33,807 bases of DNA, taken from positions 1-33,807 of IMG/VR virus record IMGVR_UViG_2695420701_000007. One strand, 5' to 3'. The notes under the pieces were generated by a model. That model was not told where the DNA came from. It worked only from the letters and a program-made list of their open reading frames with translations, and made no database searches. Origin of the DNA: a virus. Taxonomy: Duplodnaviria; Heunggongvirae; Uroviricota; Caudoviricetes. Both the position numbers and the translations under genes were made by a program. Shown piece after piece: positions 14,103 through 31,080 of the stretch (position 1 is the first letter of the stretch; each line of letters opens with the position of its first letter).

Positions 14103-15926
14103 ATGAAATATACCGAAGAAGTCAGGGACGCTGCCCGCGCCCTGTATCTGAAATTCAGTACACCAAAAGAGATAGCGGCCACGCTGGGGCTTCCTGTGCG
14201 TACCGTTTATAACTGGGCTGTCCGGGGGCAATGGAATGAAATGTTACCAGCCGAGTCGGTGGAAGTGGCTGTCGCCCGGCGAGTGGAACGACTGACCTGC
14301 AAGGATGGTAAAAGCGAGCTTGAGCTTGAAGAGCTGCGCTTCCTGATATCCCAGCACGTCAGGCTGATGGCGCAGAAGAACAAACATGCTGAACGGATGG
14401 AAGAGATCCGGGCGATGGTCAATACCGGCGTGGTGGTCAATGATGGCCGACAGGGTAGCAGTGAAGAAGGGAATGACGAAGGTGGTAAAAAAAGGAAGCG
14501 ACTACGTAAAAATGATGTCGGCGGACTGACAAAAGAAATATTTGATGAAAAAGCGAATGGTCATCTGTTTGAATATCAGCAATATGTGCGTGAGCACGGC
14601 GACGAACTGTTCCGCTTCATTCTGAAAGGGCGACAGGAAGGATTTACCTACTATTTTGCATGGGAAGGGTTTGAAAAGGCCGTTCTCACGGGCAAGAATC
14701 AGATATTCTTTTCCGCCAGTAAACCCCAGGCGGAAGTTTTCCGTTTCTATATTCTCAGTATTGCGCAGCAATTCTTTGGTGTCGAGCTTAAAGGCAACCC
14801 GATTCGCCTCAGCAATGGTGCGATACTGCGTTTTCTGGCGACCAATCCCAATACGGCGCAGTCCTACAGTGGCGACCTGTACGGGGATGAGGTCTTCTGG
14901 ATACCGAAATTTGCCCGCCTGCATGAAGTGGCGTCAGCGATGGCGACGCATGACGAATTCCGTATTACCTACTTTTCAACCCCCAGCGCTAAAACGCACC
15001 AGGCTTACAGGCTGTGGACAGGGGATGAATGGAAGGGCGACGATCCGAAACGTAAGGCGGCGGAGTTCCCGACCAGCAAGGAATTGCGTAAAGGTGGACG
15101 GGTCTGCCCTGACGGGATCTGGCGCTATGTCATCACTATGGAGGATGCGTGCGCTAAGGGACTCAGTGCCAGAGTTAACATTGAGAAGCTGCGTAACCGC
15201 TACAGCGCCACGGCGTTTGCCATGCTGTACATGTGTGAGTTCACTGACTCCCGCGACACAGTATTTAAATTCTCAGACCTTGAAAAATGTGAGGTTGAGT
15301 TCGGCATCTGGCAGGACTTCGACCCCTCCGCATTACGGCCTTTTGGTAATCGTGAGGTGTGGGGCGGTTTTGATCCGTCACGAACGGGTGATAACTCAAC
15401 ATTTGTTATTGTGGCCCCGCCTGTTGAGTCTAAAGAAAAATTTCGCGTGCTGGCTGTCTACCAGTGGGTGGGGCTTAACTTCACCTGGCAGGTTAAGCAG
15501 ATTGAAGAATTAATGAAACGCTACCGGTTTACGCATATCGGGGTGGATATCACGGGTATTGGCCGGGGTGTTTATGATCAACTGGTACGCTCCGCACCGC
15601 GTGAGGTGATGGGGATTAACTACAGTGTTGATAATAAAAATAAACTGGTGCTTAAGATGATTGACCTCATTGAGCGGCGACGTATCCAGTGGGTGAAAGA
15701 TGCGGTTGATGAGGTGACAAAAGAACGTGCCGATATCCCGCTGGCATTTATGGCCATCCGCCGTGTAATGACTGCCAGTCAGAACGCAATGACGTTCGCC
15801 GCCGAACGCAGCGAAACGACCGGTCACGCGGACGTATTTTTTGCCATATCGCACGCGGTCTGTAATGAACCGCTCGACTATGAATATGACCGCCCCTCGG
15901 TGTGGGCATTCGGGAAGGCTGCATGA
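14103..15926 (+). CDS. P: Terminase ATPase (large) subunit, P2 gpP-like
   Basis: Listed ORF 13908-15926 overlaps the divergent gpO start; likely start at MKYTEEVRDAARALYL (about 14103). About 608 aa, divergent from O as in the P2 PQ / ONML arrangement. Confidence 0.8.
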   Translation: MKYTEEVRDAARALYLKFSTPKEIAATLGLPVRTVYNWAVRGQWNEMLPAESVEVAVARRVERLTCKDGKSELELEELRFLISQHVRLMAQKNKHAERMEEIRAMVNTGVVVNDGRQGSSEEGNDEGGKKRKRLRKNDVGGLTKEIFDEKANGHLFEYQQYVREHGDELFRFILKGRQEGFTYYFAWEGFEKAVLTGKNQIFFSASKPQAEVFRFYILSIAQQFFGVELKGNPIRLSNGAILRFLATNPNTAQSYSGDLYGDEVFWIPKFARLHEVASAMATHDEFRITYFSTPSAKTHQAYRLWTGDEWKGDDPKRKAAEFPTSKELRKGGRVCPDGIWRYVITMEDACAKGLSARVNIEKLRNRYSATAFAMLYMCEFTDSRDTVFKFSDLEKCEVEFGIWQDFDPSALRPFGNREVWGGFDPSRTGDNSTFVIVAPPVESKEKFRVLAVYQWVGLNFTWQVKQIEELMKRYRFTHIGVDITGIGRGVYDQLVRSAPREVMGINYSVDNKNKLVLKMIDLIERRRIQWVKDAVDEVTKERADIPLAFMAIRRVMTASQNAMTFAAERSETTGHADVFFAISHAVCNEPLDYEYDRPSVWAFGKAA

Positions 15927-16978
15927 GTAAACGTAAAAGCGCACGCCTGCGTAAACGGGCACAGACAGAAAATTTTACTCCCGGACGCGGCAATATTATC
16001 ACTTTCGGGGAGCCGGAACCGATACTGACTACCGGCACGGAATACATCAACGTCTGGTATAACGGTAGCTACAACTACTGGACACTACCAATAGACAGAC
16101 TTGCGCTCGCGCAGTTGCCGAATCTTAACGCCCAGCATGGCGGCGTACTGTATGCACGCAAAAATATGGTGTGTGCCAGCTACCAGGGGGGTGGACTGAC
16201 GACCGATCAGATGGAAATGGCTGTCTTTGACTACCTGCTGTTTGGTGATGTGGCCATTCTGAAGGTCCGTAACGGGTGGGGACGGGTGGTGGCGCTGGCA
16301 CCATTACCGTCTTTGTATCTGCGTCGCAGCAAGCAACTTGATTTTATCGTGTTACAGGAGGGCGAGCCGCTGGTCTATTCGCCGTCTGATGTTGTGTTTT
16401 TACGTATGCATGATCCGCGACAGCAGATTTATGGACTGCCTGATTATATCGGTGGTATTCATTCAGCGTTACTGAACAGTGAGGCGACCATTTTCAGACG
16501 TCGCTACTATCACAACGGTGCGCATATGGGGTTCATCATGTACGCGTCCGACCCGAATATGTCTGTTGAGGCTGAAGAAGCTATACGTAAAAAAATAGAG
16601 AGCGGTAACGGGCTTGGGAATTTCCGTAACATGTTTATCAGTATCCCAAAAGGGCAACCGGACGGGATTAAAATTATTCCGGTTGGGGATATTCAGCAAA
16701 AAGATGAGTTTTCAAATGTGAAGAATATCAGCGCTCAGGATGTTCTTACGGCGCACCGCTTTCCGGCTGGTCTTGCCGGTATTATCCCGCAAAATGCGAG
16801 CGGACTTGGCGATCCCGATAAGGCAAGGACAACCTATGGACGGGATGAAGTGACACCTGTCTGCCGTAAATTCATGCAGGCTGTGAACAGCGATCCCGAA
16901 ATCCCCCCGTCGTTACACCTTAATTTTACGCTGGAAGATGTGGAAAATGTGGTGTCTGCGCTGGCTGATGAAAAATAA
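15923..16978 (+). CDS. Q: Portal protein, P2 gpQ-like
   Basis: Listed ORF 15902-16978; probable start at MSKRKSARLRK overlapping the terminase stop; FGEPEPIL near the N-terminus as in gpQ-type portals. Confidence 0.75.
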   Translation: MSKRKSARLRKRAQTENFTPGRGNIITFGEPEPILTTGTEYINVWYNGSYNYWTLPIDRLALAQLPNLNAQHGGVLYARKNMVCASYQGGGLTTDQMEMAVFDYLLFGDVAILKVRNGWGRVVALAPLPSLYLRRSKQLDFIVLQEGEPLVYSPSDVVFLRMHDPRQQIYGLPDYIGGIHSALLNSEATIFRRRYYHNGAHMGFIMYASDPNMSVEAEEAIRKKIESGNGLGNFRNMFISIPKGQPDGIKIIPVGDIQQKDEFSNVKNISAQDVLTAHRFPAGLAGIIPQNASGLGDPDKARTTYGRDEVTPVCRKFMQAVNSDPEIPPSLHLNFTLEDVENVVSALADEK

Positions 16979-17438: not shown

Positions 17439-17957
17439 TTATTCGAAGCTGGCAAGAATCTGTTCTCGAACAGAAGATTTCATCGTTAACCCACGATCCA
17501 GGAAAAATTGGAAATGCATTAAGGCTTGTTGTTTGTGGATAAATCTCCTGCGCACAGCCTCCTGGAGTAGCCCTCCGTGGCGGGCGGCTTTTACACCGCG
17601 TTCCGCACACGTTTTATAAACCGCATTATCCGCCGAAAGACATGTTGCATCATGTATTCTCGCGTTAACAACGCAGCTTATGTCCGCATACTTCAATGCT
17701 CTCCTGCGATTTTTTATCTCAGCCATTTCAATAAAATGTTCAGGTTCGTAATCATTGGTGAAATTGTATGGAAGTTGCAGGCGTGTAAGCTGTTCCTGAA
17801 CATCAAGATTGTATTTAGCTTTTAGTTCCTCGCAGACATAGGGGTCAATCCACACACCACCCGGGTAAATTTGCCAGATAAGATCTAAGCATTTACCTTC
17901 GTAAAAATCAGACAGTACATTCGTATCGATAACACATCTGGGGCATTCAAACGGCAT
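17439..17957 (-). CDS. PIN-like domain protein (DUF4411-like), putative toxin/nuclease
   Basis: Listed ORF 17439-17990; probable start MPFECPRCVIDTNVLSDFYEG (complement of 17955-17957), overlapping the upstream gene stop by about 11 nt. VIDTNVL is the typical N-terminal strand-1 motif of PIN domains; region is AT-rich. Confidence 0.55.
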   Translation of the reverse strand: MPFECPRCVIDTNVLSDFYEGKCLDLIWQIYPGGVWIDPYVCEELKAKYNLDVQEQLTRLQLPYNFTNDYEPEHFIEMAEIKNRRRALKYADISCVVNARIHDATCLSADNAVYKTCAERGVKAARHGGLLQEAVRRRFIHKQQALMHFQFFLDRGLTMKSSVREQILASFE

Positions 17958-19092
17958 CCTCTCCGGCCTCCTGTTCGTCGTACCATTCATCCAGAAGATT
18001 GCTGAGAGCTTTTCTGTCTAATTCTAAAAGTTCAGATATGAAGGTTTCCGACGCGGAACCGGCTTCCCATGCTTTACGCGATAAGACGGTTAGGCGACCT
18101 TTATAATTTAGTGCTTCCCTTATGGGATTTGGCTCGTGTCTCTTCCAGCCTTTACGATTGGCGGTTGCCCATAGGTATCTAGTGTTTTGCTGATTAATTA
18201 AATTACATTTACTAAGACGCTCAATGATGCAAGTGGCTGATACTCTGAAAATGCTTTTTAGTCTAAGGACGGTTTCCTCATACGCCCATCCACCACCTTG
18301 CATGACGAATTGTTTTCGCAACGCGCTTTCTGGTACCAAAAAACAAGCAGCAAAGTGATTAGCAACTTTTTCTTCCGGTGAAATTGCTTTGCCATTAGTT
18401 TTATAGCTTTTAGCAGGGCCATCATACTCATCACGGTGGAAGATAAGATGAGCATATTCATGGCAAATACTGAAGATTTGACGTTCTATTGAAATGCTGT
18501 CGTGAACATTTACATAAATCGCGGTACCGTATTTGTTCGAAAACGCAGAAAATCCGAATACCATCCCTTTATCGGTTTCCTCGCGATTGAACGGGATCAC
18601 TCGAATATCCGATGCTTCCAAAATGGCTACAATGTCACCAACGCAAGTAGCGTTTCCCATACCAAGACGGAAACGTTCTTCCATAGCCTTATCTTCGACT
18701 CTTCGCAAATCTTCTGCTTTGGCGGTAAAAACAGGCATTGAGTTAGGAAGATCTTCTGGCAAATTAGCATCAGCAGCTTCCTCAATTGCATTGATATTTT
18801 TTAACTTTTCAATCAACTCATTGCGAAGTCTGGCATCCAACAAATCCGGACTATCTGCTCGCATTGCAAAACGAAACTCGCCATCATCTTGCTCATAAAA
18901 ATACCCGACAGGCTTATCGAAAATCTTGCAGAGCATGATGAGTTGGGTAACGCTTGGGACGCCTAGCGCCTGCTCAAACTTACTGTAGGTTTGACGAACA
19001 ACACCGATCGCATCTGCGACGGCGCTTGCACTCATTCCTGCGTCGTTTCTGGCCTGAACCAAGCGTTCTGCTATACGCTGTTGAATGTTCAT
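17947..19092 (-). CDS. XRE-family HTH domain fused to ImmA/IrrE-type zinc metallopeptidase (COG2856-like)
   Basis: 381 aa; N-terminal HTH (MSASAVADAIGVVRQTYSKFEQ), C-terminal HExxH motif (ICHEYAHLIF) in a context typical of ImmA/IrrE peptidases; AT-rich codon usage. Confidence 0.65.
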   Translation of the reverse strand: MNIQQRIAERLVQARNDAGMSASAVADAIGVVRQTYSKFEQALGVPSVTQLIMLCKIFDKPVGYFYEQDDGEFRFAMRADSPDLLDARLRNELIEKLKNINAIEEAADANLPEDLPNSMPVFTAKAEDLRRVEDKAMEERFRLGMGNATCVGDIVAILEASDIRVIPFNREETDKGMVFGFSAFSNKYGTAIYVNVHDSISIERQIFSICHEYAHLIFHRDEYDGPAKSYKTNGKAISPEEKVANHFAACFLVPESALRKQFVMQGGGWAYEETVLRLKSIFRVSATCIIERLSKCNLINQQNTRYLWATANRKGWKRHEPNPIREALNYKGRLTVLSRKAWEAGSASETFISELLELDRKALSNLLDEWYDEQEAGEDAV

Positions 19093-19376
19093 ACGTCACC
19101 TGAATTTAACAATGGTGGCTCTTATGGGTTTAGATTGGTTAATTATTACTAACATTATGAATGGAGAGTTGCAAAAATCATAATTAAATTATGCAAATTT
19201 CATGGAGTGTGATGTGGTGTGGGTTCACACTCTCTGCTGATTACATCCAGGGCGGTTTCCGCCCTGGCTCTGCTTACTCAGGAAATAACGCCCGGATATT
19301 TCCGGCCATCTGACTGGTTATCTGTGCGGTTGGTACTGGCTGTGGCGTGGGCGTTCTGCCCTGTTTGCGCCCTGAC

Positions 19377-19745
19377 CTATGCAATCCGCGCCGGATTCAT
19401 ATGGCACATGTTGTGTCTTTTTTCTGCATGGTAATGAGCTTTGTTCTCGTTAAACGGTAACACCTCATTCAGCCCGGCACTTCTGAAATCAGCGTGTAAT
19501 TGCTCCAGTACTGTTTCTTTATCAGCACCCGTTAATTCGAGATAATCCCAGAGGCTGGCGCATAAACCACAGTTTCGCGAAAATATTCTGCCTGGATTTG
19601 CTCCGTTTTTCAGCCACAAATCATAAGTAATATAAAATCCGTGAAGTTGTTGCCTGATACTTTCTTTGATTTCCTGCGCTGGCACGGTGCCTGGTAATTG
19701 CTCTCTCATTGTGAATCTCTCCTGTGTTGTGCCGGTCTGGCGCAT
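19377..19745 (-). CDS. Hypothetical protein
   Basis: 122 aa ORF in the early operon downstream of replication gene A; start uncertain (alternative Met at MREQLPG). Confidence 0.35.
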   Translation of the reverse strand: MRQTGTTQERFTMREQLPGTVPAQEIKESIRQQLHGFYITYDLWLKNGANPGRIFSRNCGLCASLWDYLELTGADKETVLEQLHADFRSAGLNEVLPFNENKAHYHAEKRHNMCHMNPARIA

Positions 19746-24190: not shown

Positions 24191-24492
24191 GATTTGGCCT
24201 CCTTACGGCTTTCTGGTGTGGAGATGATCAGATTCAGTTTCAGGGCGGTGGCGTGTTCCTCTTTTGCCCCCGGCGAGTCCTCCCAGCCATCCAGCAGGTA
24301 AATCACATCGGCACAGTGCAGCATGGCGCTCCCGATAAGCATGTAGTCCCTGTATCTCAGCCCGTCAGGGAGTGTTGCGGGGTTGAGTACGGTATGACCC
24401 TGCATCCTCAGGCGGGTCGCCGTCATGGTGAAGGCGGTGCGGTTGAAATCAGGCTTCCCCGTCATGGGGCCAGCGATATAGATAACGGCCAT
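24181..24492 (-). CDS. Nucleoside 2-deoxyribosyltransferase-like protein (DUF4406-like)
   Basis: 103 aa starting MAVIYIAGPMTGKPDFNRTAF, the typical N-terminus of the DUF4406 / deoxyribosyltransferase-like fold found in phages. Confidence 0.5.
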   Translation of the reverse strand: MAVIYIAGPMTGKPDFNRTAFTMTATRLRMQGHTVLNPATLPDGLRYRDYMLIGSAMLHCADVIYLLDGWEDSPGAKEEHATALKLNLIISTPESRKEAKSCF

Positions 24493-25451
24493 TACATGAT
24501 CTCCGTGGTGGGGTGTGGAGCGGGAATGTGAGACAGCCAGCCCGCATTGACATCCCGGATCCGGACCTCACGGGCTGGCGGATAAACACCAATCACCTCT
24601 TTTGCCTGCTGGCGTGCACTGCTGCTGGCAGCCACAGCGCGGCGAACGCTCAGGGTGTGCAGCTCAAACGAGGAATAGATCTGCCGGGTTTCGGAGGTGT
24701 CACTGTTGGAGACCACCGGGTGGATACCGTAACGCTGCCAGGCGTTCATCATGAGCGCCGCAAGGTCACGGTGGTCTTTGCGGGTAAATGCCCGGCCGTT
24801 GTAGTGAGTGAACGCCTCTTTACCGTCCGGTGGCAGGTAGGGCGGATCGCAGTAAATGGCGATATCGCCGTGCACCGAAGAAAAACGGCGGATCTCAGCC
24901 GGCATTGTGAAGGCTGTACGGAAATCCGCGTGAATAAAGCGGGTCCGGGTCTCGTTGGCTTTATCAGCAAACAGGCGCATTTCCTGGCAGGGGAAATAAG
25001 GCATGCGGTGTTTGCCGAATGGCACATTGAATTCGCCTTTTTGGTTGGTGCGGTACAGGCCGTTAAAGCAATGGCGGTTCAGGTACAGAAACAGCGCTGC
25101 CCATTCCAGGGATTCGCCGCGTAATCTGTCGGTGGCCAGCGCGATGGTGTTAAATGCCCCGCGATGGCGTTTGTAGGCTTCCGGTGTGCCGCCATCCTTA
25201 AAGAGCGACCATGCACGATCCATTAATTCCGTGGTGTTGGTCGTCAGTTGCTGGTAGAAATTAATCAGCGCGGGGTTGCTGTCACACAATACGTAATAGT
25301 CATAATCCGTGTTCATGAAGACCGAGCCGCCGCCCACGAAGGGTTCGATCAGGCAGGCGGCTTTGGGTAAATATTCGCGCAGCTGCGGCATGATACTGAA
25401 TTTGCCGCCCGCCCATTTGAGCGGTGAGCGCTGGTTCAGAATACCTTTCAT
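24492..25451 (-). CDS. dam: DNA adenine methyltransferase (Dam-like, D12 class N6-A MTase)
   Basis: 319 aa; N-terminal LKWAGGK motif, catalytic DPPY motif (IAIYCDPPYLPP), FxGxG-like SAM region (EPFVGGGSV). Confidence 0.8.
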   Translation of the reverse strand: MKGILNQRSPLKWAGGKFSIMPQLREYLPKAACLIEPFVGGGSVFMNTDYDYYVLCDSNPALINFYQQLTTNTTELMDRAWSLFKDGGTPEAYKRHRGAFNTIALATDRLRGESLEWAALFLYLNRHCFNGLYRTNQKGEFNVPFGKHRMPYFPCQEMRLFADKANETRTRFIHADFRTAFTMPAEIRRFSSVHGDIAIYCDPPYLPPDGKEAFTHYNGRAFTRKDHRDLAALMMNAWQRYGIHPVVSNSDTSETRQIYSSFELHTLSVRRAVAASSSARQQAKEVIGVYPPAREVRIRDVNAGWLSHIPAPHPTTEIM

Positions 25452-27817: not shown

Positions 27818-28021
27818 TTAGCTGTTAGCCAAAGCGTCTTTTAACATCGCCACAAGGTTTACTTCAGGCTTTTCCATTTTGGCGCGTTTGGGGCGGATAA
27901 TAATTCGACCGTCAGCCAACATCTTTTTGCATGTATTAAGAGGGATACCTGTTATCTCTGCATATTTCTGCAGGGATACATAGGGGGCATTCACATTGAT
28001 ATTGATGGTTATACCTGACAT
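27818..28021 (-). CDS. Cox-like HTH regulator / excisionase-type protein
   Basis: 67 aa; APYVSLQKYAEITGIPLNTCKKMLADGRIIIRP follows the pattern of P2 Cox N-terminus (IPYQEFAKLIGKSTGAVRRMIDKGKLPVI). Confidence 0.5.
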   Translation of the reverse strand: MSGITININVNAPYVSLQKYAEITGIPLNTCKKMLADGRIIIRPKRAKMEKPEVNLVAMLKDALANS

Positions 28022-28037
28022 CCCACTAACCTCCTGA

Positions 28038-28244
28038 TCAGGAAGATTTGTTTTGTTCTTTCTGGGTTAGCTCTAGGCCGCGAAGGAAGATCATGCGCGC
28101 CATGTTAGAGGATGAGCGTTGTTCTTTAGCTGCCATCTCATCAATAAAGGCGCGCTCCTCCGCTGACAGTCGAAGTGCCAGTCTTTGACCTGTGGCGGTG
28201 TTACGCGGAATGCGTGACTTGGTGTCGTGACTAACTTGATTCAT
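28038..28244 (-). CDS. Ribbon-helix-helix-like small regulator; first gene of the early operon (Cro/Apl position)
   Basis: 68 aa; RLALRLSAEERAFIDEMA...SSNMARMIF resembles an RHH (Arc/CopG-type) fold; divergent from the repressor gene. Confidence 0.45.
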   Translation of the reverse strand: MNQVSHDTKSRIPRNTATGQRLALRLSAEERAFIDEMAAKEQRSSSNMARMIFLRGLELTQKEQNKSS

Positions 28245-28303
28245 AGTGGTACATTGTGATCATCTAATGGTTCGTGAAATTACTTTAGGGAACAAAACTT
28301 CCT
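28245..28303. promoter_or_regulatory. Divergent promoter/operator region of the lysis-lysogeny switch
   Basis: 59-bp gap between divergent repressor (plus) and early-operon (minus) starts; contains the TGATCA palindrome (with a GATC Dam site) in ACATTGTGATCATCTAATGG. Confidence 0.5.
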
Positions 28304-28717
28304 ATGTCAACAGAAAAAGAGGAACTAAGCGTCATTATTGGCCGTCGATTACGGGAGGAGCGAGAGAAAATTGGCATGACCCAAGATGATATGGCGTCGA
28401 TTTTTGAAGTTTCTACAAAGACTTGGGGGAAGTATGAAAGAGGGGTGACTACACCGGATGCAGTTATGTTGAATCTCTTGGGAGGGCGCTGCGGAGTAGA
28501 TGTCTATTACATACTTTCTGGTAGTCGTGCACATGGCATCCCTAATGCTACTGAAGATGAGATTGAGCTAATTAAAATATATCGTTCTGCACCTTTGGCT
28601 GTTAAGGCGGCAGCTTTGGCAGCCTTGACTGCTGGTAGTTTGTCTCTAGGTACAATAAGAGCTTCTGGCAAAGGCCATCGTATTGCAGGTCGTGACTATA
28701 ACGAAACGAAGGGTTAG
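28304..28717 (+). CDS. Immunity repressor, XRE-family HTH (CI/C-like)
   Basis: 137 aa; N-terminal HTH (GMTQDDMASIFEVSTKTWGKYERG); divergent from the early operon and co-oriented with integrase. Confidence 0.7.
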   Translation: MSTEKEELSVIIGRRLREEREKIGMTQDDMASIFEVSTKTWGKYERGVTTPDAVMLNLLGGRCGVDVYYILSGSRAHGIPNATEDEIELIKIYRSAPLAVKAAALAALTAGSLSLGTIRASGKGHRIAGRDYNETKG

Positions 28718-28735
28718 TGATAGTAGGGAGGTGAC

Positions 28736-29383
28736 ATGGCTGTCAACTCAAACGGTTCAGACAATCGCGTTTCTGGGCGTGATTACCACGAAAAGAACAT
28801 TCGGATAGAGCGGTATGATGGTCGTCATACAGTCAACATTGCAATCCCTTCCTGTGGGGCTGATGAGCGCCCATTAGTCAAGGCTCAGCGCCATCAACTG
28901 AAGTTGTTGGTTGATAAGATTGTTGATGTCAGCAAGGAAGAATCGTTTGTTGTCTGGCGTAAACTTCATGCTGAAATCGGTGTTGATAGCATCGATAAGA
29001 TGACGGTGAATCAGTATCCAACCGCAATTAGCTTCCTCAATGCGATGCTTGACCGACATAAAGAGCGCGACGCCTGCAAATCACTTGTAAGTCTCCTTCT
29101 TCGCAATAGTGAGAATAATGAAGCTAGACAAAAACTTCTTCGATATTGTCATATCAATTTTGGAACAGGGCGCTTAAATGATCTTACTCGCTCTCAGCTT
29201 CAGATGGCTCTTTCATGGTTAGATCAGCAAACAACAGACTGTGAAAATAATTTGCCCTCAGATAATTCTAAATTTGTCGATAAACAATCGCGATTAGTGT
29301 TTCAGCAAATAATTAAAACATATCCAAAAGAAATGGGGGTATGTTTTGTTATTGGTGTTTTATTAGGCATGATTCTTTTCTGA
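28736..29383 (+). CDS. Hypothetical C-terminally membrane-anchored protein (cargo between repressor and integrase)
   Basis: 215 aa; single C-terminal hydrophobic helix GVCFVIGVLLGMILF; AT-rich relative to the phage core; co-transcribed orientation with repressor. Confidence 0.5.
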   Translation: MAVNSNGSDNRVSGRDYHEKNIRIERYDGRHTVNIAIPSCGADERPLVKAQRHQLKLLVDKIVDVSKEESFVVWRKLHAEIGVDSIDKMTVNQYPTAISFLNAMLDRHKERDACKSLVSLLLRNSENNEARQKLLRYCHINFGTGRLNDLTRSQLQMALSWLDQQTTDCENNLPSDNSKFVDKQSRLVFQQIIKTYPKEMGVCFVIGVLLGMILF

Positions 29384-29588: not shown

Positions 29589-29846
29589 ATGGTAACTAAT
29601 CCGCAAATTCCATTGACTGGCTTATATGTATCCAAAGTTAATCCATCTAATCGTATAGTTGTTACTGATGTTCATATTGTTTAGGATGATGACGATGAGC
29701 CAGGAGAGCTTCCTTTCTATTTGGTTACTTTTGTAAATGAGGGGGATGAGGATGATATGTTGGCTCCTTCTTGGGAGCTAGATCCTGAGGAATGGGAGCA
29801 GTTAGTTGATGAAGAGCGCTTTATGCGCGTGGAGCAACCATCTTAA
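29589..29846 (+). pseudogene. Small acidic ORF interrupted by an in-frame TAG (amber) codon
   Basis: Good SD (AGAGG) then MVTNPQIPLTGLYVSKVNPSNRIVVTDVHIV - TAG at 29682-29684 - continuing in the same frame DDDDEPGELPFYLVTFVNEGDEDDMLAPSWELDPEEWEQLVDEERFMRVEQPS to TAA at 29844-29846. Confidence 0.4.
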
Positions 29847-29872: not shown

Positions 29873-30874
29873 ATGTCTGTTCGTAAATTACCTACTGGCA
29901 AATGGCTCTGTGAATGCTACCCCTACGGAGCAGCAGGAAAACGCATTCGTAAACAGTTTGTTACTAAGGGTGAGGCGCTCTCTTATGAGCGCCGTTTAAT
30001 GAACAGTAATTTGGGGAGCGAGTTTCAGGATGGTTCTGGCCCCCGCCTTTCCGAGTTGGTTGCTCGCTGGTTTGAGATGTACGGTAAGACACTGTCTTCC
30101 GGTGAAGAGCGAAGGGCTAAACTTGAGGCGATTTGCTCCCGGTTGGGGGATCCGCTTGCTTCTCAATTTGATAAAAACATGTTTGCCACCTACAGGGAAC
30201 GGCGATTATCAGGTGAATGGAATCCAAAGGGGAAGAGGAAGCTTAGCGAAGCAACCGTTAATCGTGAGCAGTCATATCTACATGCTGTTTTTGCCGAACT
30301 GAAGCGCCTTGGGGAGTGGTCTGGTGAAAACCCCTTAACTGGCATTCGCAAATTTCGTGAGGAAGAAAAGGAACTGGCGTTTCTGTATGTAGATGAGATT
30401 GAACGCCTTCTGATTGCGTGTGATGAGTCACGGAATAAAGATTTGGGGGTTGTTGTCCGTATTGGGCTTGCGACTGGTGCTCGGTGGAGTGAAGCAGAAG
30501 GATTAAAGCAATCTCAAGTACTGCCCGGTCGAATCACATTTGTTAAAACTAAAGGAAAGAAGAACCGCACTGTACCGATTTCACCTCAATTGCAGGCTAT
30601 GCTTCCTAAAAAACGAGGAGCGCTATTTTCACCATGTTATGAGGCTTTTGACGCTGCAATTAAGAGAGCGAAGATCGAGCTTCCTGATGGGCAATTAACT
30701 CATGTGCTACGTCACACGTTTGCCAGTCATTTTATGATGCGGGGCGGAAATATTCTTGTGTTGCAAAAAATACTGGGGCATAGCGATATAAAAATGACTA
30801 TGCGTTATGCGCATTTTGCTCCAGGTCATTTAGAGGCTGCTGTTGAATTGAACCCTTTTGACAATAGAGGGTAA
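29873..30874 (+). CDS. int: Tyrosine integrase (phage integrase family)
   Basis: 333 aa; C-terminal catalytic region HVLRHTFASHFMMRGGNILVLQKILGHSDIKMTMRYAHF (HxxR ... Y); adjacent to the tRNA-derived att core. Confidence 0.85.
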   Translation: MSVRKLPTGKWLCECYPYGAAGKRIRKQFVTKGEALSYERRLMNSNLGSEFQDGSGPRLSELVARWFEMYGKTLSSGEERRAKLEAICSRLGDPLASQFDKNMFATYRERRLSGEWNPKGKRKLSEATVNREQSYLHAVFAELKRLGEWSGENPLTGIRKFREEEKELAFLYVDEIERLLIACDESRNKDLGVVVRIGLATGARWSEAEGLKQSQVLPGRITFVKTKGKKNRTVPISPQLQAMLPKKRGALFSPCYEAFDAAIKRAKIELPDGQLTHVLRHTFASHFMMRGGNILVLQKILGHSDIKMTMRYAHFAPGHLEAAVELNPFDNRG

Positions 30875-30981
30875 AAAGTGGCGATAAAAAGTGACAATAG
30901 ATTCAAATGGCGTTGTATAGAGCTATTTTCAAAGTTAATAAAATCATAAGGTTATGATTTATAAATGGTGGTTGATAGTTT

Positions 30982-31035
30982 TTAAAATCCCTCGGCGTTC
31001 GCGCTGTGCGGGTTCAAGTCCCGCTCCGGGTACCA
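30982..31035 (+). tRNA. leuZ: 3' fragment of tRNA-Leu (leuZ-type): phage att core / prophage-host junction
   Basis: TTTAAAATCCCTCGGCGTTCGCGCTGTGCGGGTTCAAGTCCCGCTCCGGGTACCA matches the anticodon-loop-to-CCA part of E. coli tRNA-Leu(UAA) from memory; the sequence upstream does not complete the 5' acceptor stem or D arm, so this is a partial copy. Confidence 0.7.
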
Positions 31036-31080
31036 TGGGAAAGATAAGAATAAAATCAAAGTAATAAGCAGTGTCGTGAA

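Follow-up and report, generated by a model that had tools for sequence, protein, structure and literature searches.

The switch region of the DNA stretch analysed here (the window, 33,807 nucleotides) matches E. coli chromosomes at 100%, and there it lies inside a P2-type prophage beside yecA and tRNA-Leu. This prophage is Xuanwuvirus-like and of the P2 family; its relatives carry the Xuanwuvirus classification, and in CFSAN029787 the tRNA-Leu region recurs exactly (68 bp) at the opposite end of the prophage. On one strand a repressor gene is followed by the gene for a Flk_N-like protein and finally by that of a tyrosine integrase, and on the other an RHH gene is followed by a Cox-like gene, with a Dam-family methylase gene further downstream (Table 1). 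The gap between the 68-aa and 137-aa open reading frames (28245–28303) is exactly 59 bp, the length given for the control region in an earlier note on this DNA. The reading put forward there, a genetic switch with an RHH-type first early gene, is borne out by protein-family matches and by gene order, as is the assignment of the switch to a P2-family prophage as its immunity switch; the locus is a real variant of the P2-type switch. The layout is already labelled in PHROGs and in the record of phage 520873.

Table 1. Features of the switch region and associated genes, in window coordinates.
Feature	Position	Strand	Description
Dam-family N6-adenine methyltransferase	24492..25451	-	downstream of the early genes; TIGR00571 dam, E 3.6e-70
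Cox-like gene, 67 aa	27818..28021	-	second early-operon gene; PHROG 575 'Cox-like excisionase and repressor', E 1.2e-27
RHH (Arc/CopG-like) gene, 68 aa	28038..28244	-	first early-operon gene; no Shine-Dalgarno sequence
Predicted Pc (repressor promoter)	28247..28255	+	extended -10 TGGTACATT; nominal start ~28262
GATC (inside TGATCA)	28258..28261		between predicted Pc -10 and start site
Predicted Pe (early promoter)	28282..28310	-	-35 TTGACA 28310-28305, 17-bp spacer, -10 TAAAGT 28287-28282; nominal start ~28275
Candidate repressor operator	28288..28303		imperfect dyad GGAA-N6-TTCC within GGGAACAAAACTTCCT; fills Pe spacer
Immunity repressor, 137 aa	28304..28717	+	Xre HTH, residues 13-72; two-helix C-terminal domain, 84-112; disordered tail ending ...GHRIAGRDYNETKG
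Flk_N-like protein, 215 aa	28736..29383	+	NCBIfam Flk, E 2.8e-15; PHROG 5825, E 1.8e-86
Tyrosine integrase	29873..30874	+	last gene on repressor strand; Pfam Int_N, E 3.2e-32; Phage_integrase, E 2e-22
Attachment-site repeat	30981..31048		3' part of tRNA-Leu; 68-bp exact repeat

The gene order Cox←RHH←|→repressor→Flk_N membrane protein(→integrase) recurs in many Enterobacterales, and the lineage comparisons given below cover 22 RHH-carrying lineages spread over many genera. DNA of the RHH gene and control region is present in 524 of 5426 complete E. coli genomes (∼10%), O157:H7 among them. Near position 28280 there is a mosaic junction, with an RHH-linked half on one side and a repressor-linked half on the other. 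The repressor, its membrane partner and the RHH and Cox proteins match no known defence system in PADLOC.

The first early gene can be placed in the RHH family on the strength of profile matches. Its product aligns over its full length with PHROG 3431 'Arc-like repressor' (E 2.7e-27), and a search of the PDB with the family profile finds the CopG-family entries 6iya and 7etr (E 9e-4 to ∼1e-3) with the strand and both helices aligned. The match to Pfam RHH_5 is below threshold (E 0.0039, 17.3 bits versus a cutoff of 26) and a search of the PDB with the single RHH sequence gave no match. The alternating hydrophobic residues L22, L24 and L26 precede the helices, a pattern that on reading the sequence fits a strand. 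The low-confidence AF2 model of the monomer, built from a nine-sequence alignment (pLDDT 71), consists of one long helix (residues 28–67).

The switch is common, yet this key gene is missing from RefSeq in every E. coli genome sampled: in eight of eight, RefSeq/PGAP omits the RHH gene and calls a 45-aa open reading frame on the + strand instead. Were that annotation correct, the RHH frame would not be a gene, the 45-aa frame would encode the real product and the early operon would start at the Cox-like gene; the lack of a Shine-Dalgarno sequence before the RHH frame points the same way. We find this scarcely credible. The + strand frame shares its third-codon positions with the RHH frame and is therefore expected as its shadow. 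It is interrupted in the window and open for only 31–69 codons across lineages, whereas the RHH frame is intact (63–72 aa) in 22 of 22. The matches of the RHH protein to a phage family and to CopG-family structures, and its positional homologues in Burkholderia phages, also speak against the 45-aa product.

The protein encoded by the second early gene belongs to the Cox family and is probably the excision directionality factor. Its PHROG match (Table 1) substantiates the claim of a separate Cox-like gene after the RHH gene, and the gene is kept in the 22 RHH-carrying lineages. It has no Pfam or PDB sequence match, the single-sequence search of the PDB returning only chance matches to lectins. 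The protein is ∼45% identical to the Cox homologues of HP2/S2 (orf2, cox) and K139. In HP1/HP2/S2 and K139, unlike here, cox is annotated as the early gene adjoining the promoter region, and tblastn found no RHH gene. In 22 of 22 lineages the RHH gene sits between the Cox-like gene and the control region, such that the adjacency of Cox/Apl-type genes to the control region is not found.

The repressor matches only HTH_19, HTH_31 and HTH_3 in Pfam, all within residues 13–72. Neither Pfam nor NCBIfam detects an S24 or other peptidase domain in it, in keeping with the earlier description of a short HTH-only repressor, and its C-terminal domain has no match to Phage_CI_C in Pfam. All 120 homologues among the matches listed are 111–208 aa long and contain HTH domains only. 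The accompanying label 'non-proteolytic' holds as far as self-cleavage of the LexA/CI type is concerned, which is excluded; as a wider claim it exceeds the evidence. The best family matches are generic Xre/HTH and DicA-like models and not the P2 C family. The AF2 model (mean pLDDT 75, below 50 in the tail) shows two helices at residues 84–112, followed by a disordered tail. Comparison of this model with solved structures using Foldseek gives matches to the HTH domain only, including ImmR, P22 c2, DdrO and SinR. The C-terminal half of the repressor is more conserved than the HTH domain.

The window contains no mismatch-free LexA box (CTGT-N8-ACAG), the best 20-mer scoring 13/20 and lying inside a coding region. 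A Tum homologue was not found in the window, and a search for Tum or another antirepressor among the other early and accessory open reading frames returned only families of unknown function.

On the + strand an extended −10 element, TGnTAyAkT (TGnTA[CT]A/G[TG]T), occurs at an identical position in 22 of 22 lineages and is probably part of Pc, the repressor promoter. It lies within a conserved DNA block of about 20–25 bp (28245–28270). The predicted early promoter Pe gives 10/12 matches in a promoter scan and its −35 element overlaps the repressor start codon; TTGAC[AT]-17/18-xAxxAT is the best match in ∼20 of the 22 lineages, its distance from the RHH start being unchanged. With nominal start sites set 7 nt past each −10, these promoter-like elements imply starts near 28262 (+) and 28275 (−). 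The predicted promoters are thus face to face rather than simply divergent, and the nominal starts overlap by ∼14 nt.

The Pe spacer is filled by a candidate repressor operator. In the window this dyad is weak, with arms of 4 bp, and each lineage has a dyad of its own in the Pe spacer, for example GGTATC-N6-GATACC, GGTATAAATATTTATACC or GAGATCTATAGATCTC. The more alike two spacers are, the more alike the repressor N-terminal domains tend to be (rho = 0.57 for the identities), whereas no such correlation holds for the C-terminal domain (rho = 0.10). There is one copy of the operator per locus, a second copy being absent within 3 kb in every lineage. An inverted repeat (28040–28052 and 28291–28303) was considered as a looping operator pair and rejected, because its left arm is equally conserved in phages with a different operator and repressor and because no lineage has a second operator copy.

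We consider it reasonably probable that the region is the lysis–lysogeny (immunity) switch of the prophage and that it works as follows. Pc would drive rightward transcription of the genes for the repressor, the membrane protein and the integrase, and Pe leftward transcription of those for RHH, Cox, the replication proteins and Dam. As the nominal start sites are ∼14 nt apart, RNA polymerase at one promoter would exclude it from the other. A dimer of the Xre-type repressor bound to the single dyad between the Pe −35 and −10 elements would turn the early operon off, and Pc would then be freed from interference, as with C in P2 and CI in 186. If Pe does fire, the RHH protein would bind the ∼25 bp block over the Pc −10 (28245–28270) and block repressor synthesis, committing the phage to lytic growth. 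The RHH protein would thus have a Cro/Arc-like role, and the Cox-like protein would mainly direct excision.

P2-type switches are textbook models of transcriptional interference and of regulators that double as excisionases. The present variant appears to split these two roles between the RHH and Cox proteins, and its promoters, compressed to a ∼14 nt overlap around a single candidate operator, make it a minimal natural test case. In the published switches of P2, 186 and HP1 the repressor operator covers the lytic promoter, and sites for the early protein cover the lysogenic promoter that faces it (PMC7498355). The locus resembles the P2 C/Cox (Pe/Pc) switch in its strand arrangement, the repressor and integrase genes running opposite to an early operon that includes a Cox-family gene, and in its predicted promoters, which face each other, with the candidate operator of the repressor lying over the lytic one. 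It differs in that the RHH gene comes first in the early operon and the Cox gene second, and in the predicted promoter starts, ∼14 nt apart against a reported promoter separation of 40–60 bp in P2-like phages. The P2 C protein has ∼99 aa and binds direct repeats (PMC2995052), which flank the Pe −10, whereas here a 137-aa Xre-type repressor faces a single candidate dyad. P88, the type species of the same genus, has instead a classical C/Cox module with a true C protein. The 186 CI/Apl switch likewise combines face-to-face promoters (pR/pL) with a directionality factor made early and a repressor incapable of self-cleavage. In contrast to the present locus, its first early gene is that for Apl, which binds seven phased repeats, it has the Tum antirepressor, of which no homologue was found in the window, and the C-terminal domain of its CI is unrelated to that of the repressor described here.

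The assignment of Pc repression to the RHH protein is favoured by the Burkholderia P2-like phages Mana, FLC5 and Milagro, in which an RHH gene also occupies the Cro position: the repressor gene is divergent from an early operon with the RHH gene first, and the depositors report HHpred matches of these RHH proteins to AmrZ, Arc and RelB. For Milagro, face-to-face promoters have been proposed (as cited in PMC13026187). The Burkholderia systems differ from ours in that their RHH proteins are only 27–37% identical to the one described here, their repressors are longer (162–223 aa), the RHH gene is not followed by a Cox-like gene and the annotation shows no Flk_N partner. The length of the conserved block, only ∼25 bp, would also suit an RHH operator better than the 5–7 phased repeats of Apl.

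Against this assignment, repression of the lysogenic promoter falls to Cox or Apl, and not to an RHH protein, in every P2-like phage tested (PMC7498355). By analogy, the Cox-like protein could do the same here and shut off Pc in the manner of Cox, Apl and HP1 Cox, leaving the RHH protein with another task. Across lineages the Cox-like protein varies less than the RHH protein, matching the conserved DNA block, and the predicted DNA-facing β-strand residues of the RHH protein differ between lineages that share this block. Co-variation between these residues and the block is inconsistent, the Edwardsiella loci fitting and two others (L017 and L021) not. Three xGTGr repeats in the block (28246, 28256 and 28267), which are weak and were noticed post hoc, are spaced by 10 and 11 bp, as is typical of directionality-factor sites, and similar words (AGTGG, AGTGA and AATGG) lie beside the integrase stop codon near the attachment site. 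On the other hand, these repeats are short, the spacings at the attachment site (13 and 16 bp) are not helically phased and the conserved DNA is limited to the ∼25 bp mentioned above. Moreover, the Cox gene comes second here, and the Burkholderia relatives place an RHH gene opposite the repressor with no adjoining Cox gene. Repression of Pc by the Cox-like protein seems to us a possibility to be kept in mind, albeit an unlikely one.

Were the Cox-like protein to act on Pc, the RHH protein might, by analogy, autoregulate or dampen Pe after the initial burst, as Arc does on Pant in P22 immI, or have a target outside the switch. In P22 immI the RHH protein Arc is the first product of the operon opposing the maintenance repressor and turns the promoters down after the burst. 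However, immI provides secondary immunity, acts by controlling an antirepressor and has RHH proteins for both regulators (Mnt and Arc), whereas the locus described here is the primary switch, with a maintenance repressor of the HTH type.

The GATC in the control region had been described as part of a palindrome that could link the switch to the phage Dam methylase. The GATC is present, within the predicted promoter, and the palindrome amounts to the trivial hexamer TGATCA. The GATC is found at this position in 19 of the 22 lineages; L010, where it reads GTTC, and the two Edwardsiella loci have lost it. In having a GATC inside a predicted promoter that is kept among relatives, the locus resembles Dam-controlled promoters such as IS10 pIN and those of the pap/agn43 type. 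A Dam-family methylase downstream on the early strand, the other half of the proposed link, is confirmed by its family match (Table 1). The E. coli Dam equivalog model gives 232 bits, below its cutoff of 441 bits, and the methylase is presumably specific for GATC.

A switch that senses Dam methylation, with the state of the GATC setting Pc activity or the binding of an early protein and the phage Dam feeding back on it, would account for the position of the site between the Pc −10 and the nominal start. Such a switch would also fit the Dam-family gene that this early operon shares with many relatives, and the two GATC-less Edwardsiella loci, which lack a Dam gene within the 3.4 kb covered by their short flanks. 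We nevertheless hold it to be improbable. Conservation extends over the entire 20 bp block, and the GATC does not exceed the neighbouring bases in this respect; one GATC per 59 bp is no more than chance, and the window as a whole is not enriched (98 in 33.8 kb versus 116 expected). L010 has lost the GATC and keeps the rest of the switch, and the GATC persists in the Arsenophonus loci, where the short flanks covered contain no Dam gene. In E. coli the host's own Dam already methylates GATC. Given the lack of enrichment, the loss in three of 22 lineages and the host enzyme, the link to the phage Dam is a possibility that does not derive from the data. To our knowledge, a single GATC site would not be expected to recruit SeqA.

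As the repressor does not cleave itself, its inactivation would proceed via a partner, most plausibly through the conserved C-terminal domain and tail. The position of the adjacent gene suggests that it is co-transcribed with the repressor gene. It encodes the 215-aa Flk_N-like protein, on homologues of which PF27202 Flk_N is found. The C-terminal hydrophobic segment of this protein (GVCFVIGVLLGMILF) is likely to be a membrane anchor, and its N-terminus (NGSDNRVSGRDYHE) repeats the motif NR[VI]AGRDY of the repressor tail. In every locus examined, a motif of ∼17 residues, [IV]N[VI][ST]GxGxR[VI]AGRD[YF]xE, is shared between the C-terminal end of the repressor and the N-terminus of its partner. 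This is so even in the Pseudomonas and Pinirhizobacter loci, although the partner there is a different small protein, with paired-cysteine (zinc-ribbon-like) motifs and C-terminal hydrophobic segments. A literature search found no paper on the cassette, the tail motif or a link between Flk and prophages.

We tentatively propose, as a reading that is less likely than not, that the repressor and the adjacent membrane-anchored protein form a previously undescribed control pair. SinR/SinI and DdrO/IrrE provide parallels: these repressors also combine an HTH domain with a short helical C-terminal domain, their HTH domains are structural neighbours of the one described here and their inactivation depends on a partner protein or on an external protease. 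The likeness stops there, since only the HTH domain aligns with SinR and DdrO, homology of the C-terminal domains not being detected, and since the candidate partner is a membrane protein with a shared linear motif instead of a helical hook or a protease. By analogy with SinI/SinR partner switching, the motif could let the membrane protein capture and release the repressor. Alternatively, the membrane protein could be a decoy for a protease that recognizes the tail, much as λ CIII shields CII from FtsH. If the proposed pair is real, maintenance and induction of the prophage would be linked to a signal at the membrane and not to RecA, and the shared motif offers a lead both to a non-SOS induction mechanism and to how Flk, a poorly understood flagellar regulator, arose.

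The control region at 28038–28717 is an uncharacterised variant of the face-to-face switch of P2-type phages, partly labelled already in PHROGs and in phage records. Two divergent ORFs of 68 and 137 aa are separated by exactly 59 bp, and their families and strands bear out the earlier note's description of a 59-bp control region between a ribbon-helix-helix (RHH)-type first early gene and a short HTH-only repressor. The 68-aa product scores below the cutoffs against both Pfam RHH_5 (E = 0.004) and the NCBIfam RelB model (E = 0.003), while a profile of this product and its homologues matches solved CopG-family RHH regulators over the strand and both helices (E = 9e-4). A separate Cox-like gene does follow, sharing ∼45% identity with cox of the Haemophilus phages HP2/S2 and of Vibrio phage K139, and a Dam-family methylase gene is indeed encoded downstream. 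HMM searches of Pfam and NCBIfam found no S24 peptidase domain in the repressor and nothing recognisable beyond the HTH, as had been claimed; the term 'non-proteolytic' is appropriate only in the sense of no self-cleavage and not as any broader claim. The reading of the region as a genetic switch is right, so that the observation of the earlier note is confirmed and its interpretation partly supported.

Features of the control region and elsewhere in the window
Feature	Position	Strand	Description
RosmerTA-like pair	17439–19092	−	381-aa HTH and M78 metallopeptidase protein, then 183-aa PIN-domain protein
Dam-family methylase gene	24492–25451	−	Same strand as the RHH and Cox-like genes, further down
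Cox-like gene	27818–28021	−	Next after RHH; PHROG 575 'Cox-like excisionase and repressor' (E = 1.2e-27)
RHH gene	28038–28244	−	68 aa; full-length match to PHROG 3431 'Arc-like repressor' (E = 2.7e-27)
Predicted Pc, extended −10	28247–28255	+	TGnTAyAkT
Predicted Pe, −10 hexamer	28287–28282	−	xAxxAT
Dyad in predicted Pe spacer	within 28288–28303		GGAA-N6-TTCC
Predicted Pe, TTGACA	28310–28305	−	
Repressor gene	28304–28717	+	137 aa; Xre-type HTH at residues 13–72
Tail motif, repressor copy	28655–28714		
Tail motif, copy in 215-aa protein	28748–28792		

The RHH ORF is left unannotated by RefSeq/PGAP in all eight E. coli genomes inspected, where a 45-aa 'hypothetical protein' is called on the plus strand instead. 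In the window this antisense ORF (28093–28188, opposite the RHH gene) is interrupted and is a pseudogene fragment; across 22 lineages of related loci it is open for merely 31–69 codons, and in other genera it is not always open. The RHH ORF is uninterrupted (63–72 aa) in all 22, with a well conserved core (SRxPxx...LRLSxEER...RSxSxMARxIFLRGL). The wobble positions of the two ORFs coincide, and the antisense ORF is therefore the expected shadow of the RHH ORF. RHH genes with 27–37% identity are found in the same position opposite the repressors of the Burkholderia P2-like phages Mana, FLC5 and Milagro, the HHpred matches given by the depositors being AmrZ, Arc and RelB. We accept the RHH gene as real, and its consistent omission from the annotation of the sampled E. 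coli genomes is noteworthy.

When the intergenic DNA of the 22 lineages is aligned, two halves are apparent: the RHH-proximal half is conserved, whereas the repressor-proximal half is lineage-specific. The former contains a block kept across genera, CAT-ArTGnTAyAkT-GTGATC, with an extended −10 element in 22 of 22 lineages that is taken to be the predicted repressor promoter Pc (nominal start near 28262). The latter varies except for a minus-strand TTGACA followed 17–18 bp on by a −10 hexamer, both of which were also picked up by a promoter scan. The spacing of this pair from the RHH start is constant in about 20 of the 22 lineages, and the pair is taken to be the predicted early promoter Pe (nominal start near 28275). 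Predicted Pc and Pe thus face each other, with start sites that overlap by ∼14–15 nt. Face-to-face promoters are reported, at 40–60 bp, for P2, 186 and HP1 (PMC7498355); the design is common to all, but the predicted geometry is tighter here.

The spacer of predicted Pe holds a different dyad in each lineage (GGTATC-N6-GATACC, GGTATAAATATTTATACC, GGTAC-N7-GTACC, GCGAAC-N4-GTTCGC, GAGATCTATAGATCTC), that of the window being weaker. Spacer identity tracks the identity of the repressor N-terminal domain (Spearman 0.57, with a p-value inflated by lineage pairs that are not independent) and does not track that of the C-terminal domain (Spearman 0.10 over the same non-independent pairs). A mosaic junction at ∼28280 separates the window from its nearest deposited relative, Escherichia phage 520873 (Xuanwuvirus): the RHH/Cox/Pc half is ∼92% identical, and beyond the junction the repressors are only 44% identical and the dyads differ. 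No second copy of the dyad is present within about 3 kb in any lineage. The simplest reading is that one dimeric HTH repressor binds one operator inside predicted Pe, and such a very compact single-operator geometry would be noteworthy.

In the favoured model the RHH protein would shut off Pc; we give this roughly twice the weight of a model in which the Cox-like protein represses Pc. Opposite the repressor the RHH gene comes first, as it also does in the Burkholderia phages, and almost no DNA is left between the predicted promoters. The conserved block is also merely ∼25 bp, the size of an Arc-type operator, in contrast to the seven phased repeats used by Apl of phage 186. Repression by the Cox-like protein would agree with every tested P2-like phage, where a Cox/Apl protein is the repressor of the lysogenic promoter (PMC7498355); the Cox-like protein is more conserved than the RHH protein, and xGTGr words 10 and 11 bp apart occur in the conserved block. 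The division of the early regulators between RHH and Cox is noteworthy.

A GATC is located between the −10 element and the start of predicted Pc, although the palindrome that the earlier note placed around it is merely TGATCA. This GATC is retained in 19 of the 22 lineages, being lost in the related locus L010 and in both Edwardsiella loci, and is no more conserved than the neighbouring positions. There is no GATC enrichment in the window (98 observed, 116 expected). The E. coli host has a Dam of its own, and the suggested link to the phage Dam is unsupported. Methylation sensitivity of the switch is possible, and nothing in the analysis argues for it. A second GATC lies in a perfect 12-bp palindrome, TCCTGATCAGGA (28032–28043), which overlaps the RHH stop codon and the Shine–Dalgarno sequence of the Cox-like gene and is not kept in the lineages of related loci L009 and L010 (CCTGAGCATGA).

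The AlphaFold model of the repressor (54 sequences, mean pLDDT 75) consists of a five-helix HTH domain, a linker, two helices (residues 84–112) and a disordered tail. Structural neighbours are obtained for the HTH domain only (ImmR, P22 c2, DdrO, SinR and the phi106 repressor). Conservation is unusual in its distribution, being higher in the 55 C-terminal residues than in the DNA-binding domain (median identity 60% versus 43%), and the last ∼17 are nearly invariant ([IV]N[VI][ST]GxGxR[VI]AGRD[YF]xE). This tail motif recurs at the N-terminus of the product of the next gene, a predicted membrane-anchored protein of 215 aa whose middle resembles Flk_N (NCBIfam Flk, E = 2.8e-15; homologues match PF27202) and which has a single C-terminal hydrophobic segment. 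The two copies differ at synonymous positions, and the similarity is thus kept at the protein level. The pairing is present in all loci examined, distant ones included; in Pseudomonas and Pinirhizobacter the partner is a small paired-cysteine (zinc-ribbon-like) protein with C-terminal hydrophobic segments and no Flk_N. Beyond these two copies, the motif is absent from the window and from the remaining prophage stretch examined. A search with the repressor C-terminal domain alone matched only 27 of 1.84 billion cluster representatives, almost always at the C-terminus of short (71–203 aa) proteins. A conserved motif common to a repressor and a putative membrane protein is noteworthy, and our literature search found no publication on one shared with a downstream protein. 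The repressor ORF ends in four consecutive in-frame stops (TAG TGA TAG TAG, 28715–28726) just before the Shine–Dalgarno sequence of the next gene.

Our search of the window found no self-cleavage domain in the repressor, no LexA box and no Tum homologue. A partner-switch or a protease-decoy are the obvious candidates for the mechanism of the motif, and either, if true, would supply the missing induction route. The Cox-like gene contains a palindrome, CTGCA-N6-TGCAG (CTCTGCATATTTCTGCAGGG, 27956–27975), that agrees with the LexA-box consensus in 12 of 20 positions and is unconvincing as a LexA site.

According to inspected genomic contexts and a scan with a single genome for each species, the Cox-like and RHH genes, divergent from the repressor and Flk_N protein genes, form a four-gene cassette in the 22 lineages, with the integrase after variable cargo in those loci whose downstream genes were examined. 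Distant loci without RHH and Cox genes (three from the Pseudomonas group and one each from Pinirhizobacter, Pectobacterium and Serratia) still have the repressor and its downstream partner. Repressor searches returned a family of 111–208-aa Xre proteins from Salmonella, Klebsiella, Serratia, Pectobacterium, Erwinia, Yersinia and others, and the RHH gene with the control region is found in 524 of 5426 complete E. coli genomes, including many O157:H7 strains. The 215-aa gene and the integrase gene are 490 bp apart, and this gap contains two short ORFs of 31 and 41 aa (29589–29846), the second of them highly acidic. They probably represent a broken cargo gene. At this position related prophages have an 85-aa DUF8087 gene or different cargo (DUF2511, WYL).

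The 2.5 kb around the switch are 100% identical to four E. coli chromosomes. In these the sequence belongs to a P2-type prophage, whose capsid, terminase, replication endonuclease and ogr genes are of the P2 family and which is flanked by yecA on one side and a tRNA-Leu/Cys/Gly cluster on the other. At 30981–31048, 68 bp repeat exactly the 3′ part of tRNA-Leu with the bases that follow it, and they are identical to the far end of the prophage in strain CFSAN029787. This repeat is the attachment core, and the prophage resides in the leuZ-cysT-glyW tRNA cluster beside yecA. The IS600 copy of CFSAN029787 (1267 bp including the target duplication) is absent at ∼19093–19406, compared with 14402–15982 of the related locus L005, and the window therefore derives from a sister genome without the insertion. 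In the record of phage 520873 the homologues are already named 'Arc-like repressor' and 'Cox-like excisionase and repressor'. The type species of Xuanwuvirus, P88, has a classical P2 C/Cox module at the corresponding place, so that the immunity region is exchangeable as a module. A tandem 13-bp direct repeat, TAAAAAGTGGCGA / TAAAAAGTGACAA (30872–30897), overlaps the integrase stop codon and provides candidate arm-type sites for integrase, or sites for Cox, within the attachment arm. A predicted RosmerTA-like toxin–antitoxin or defence pair, the 381-aa protein of which matches PADLOC RmrA (E = 3e-35), is situated between the replication genes and ogr.
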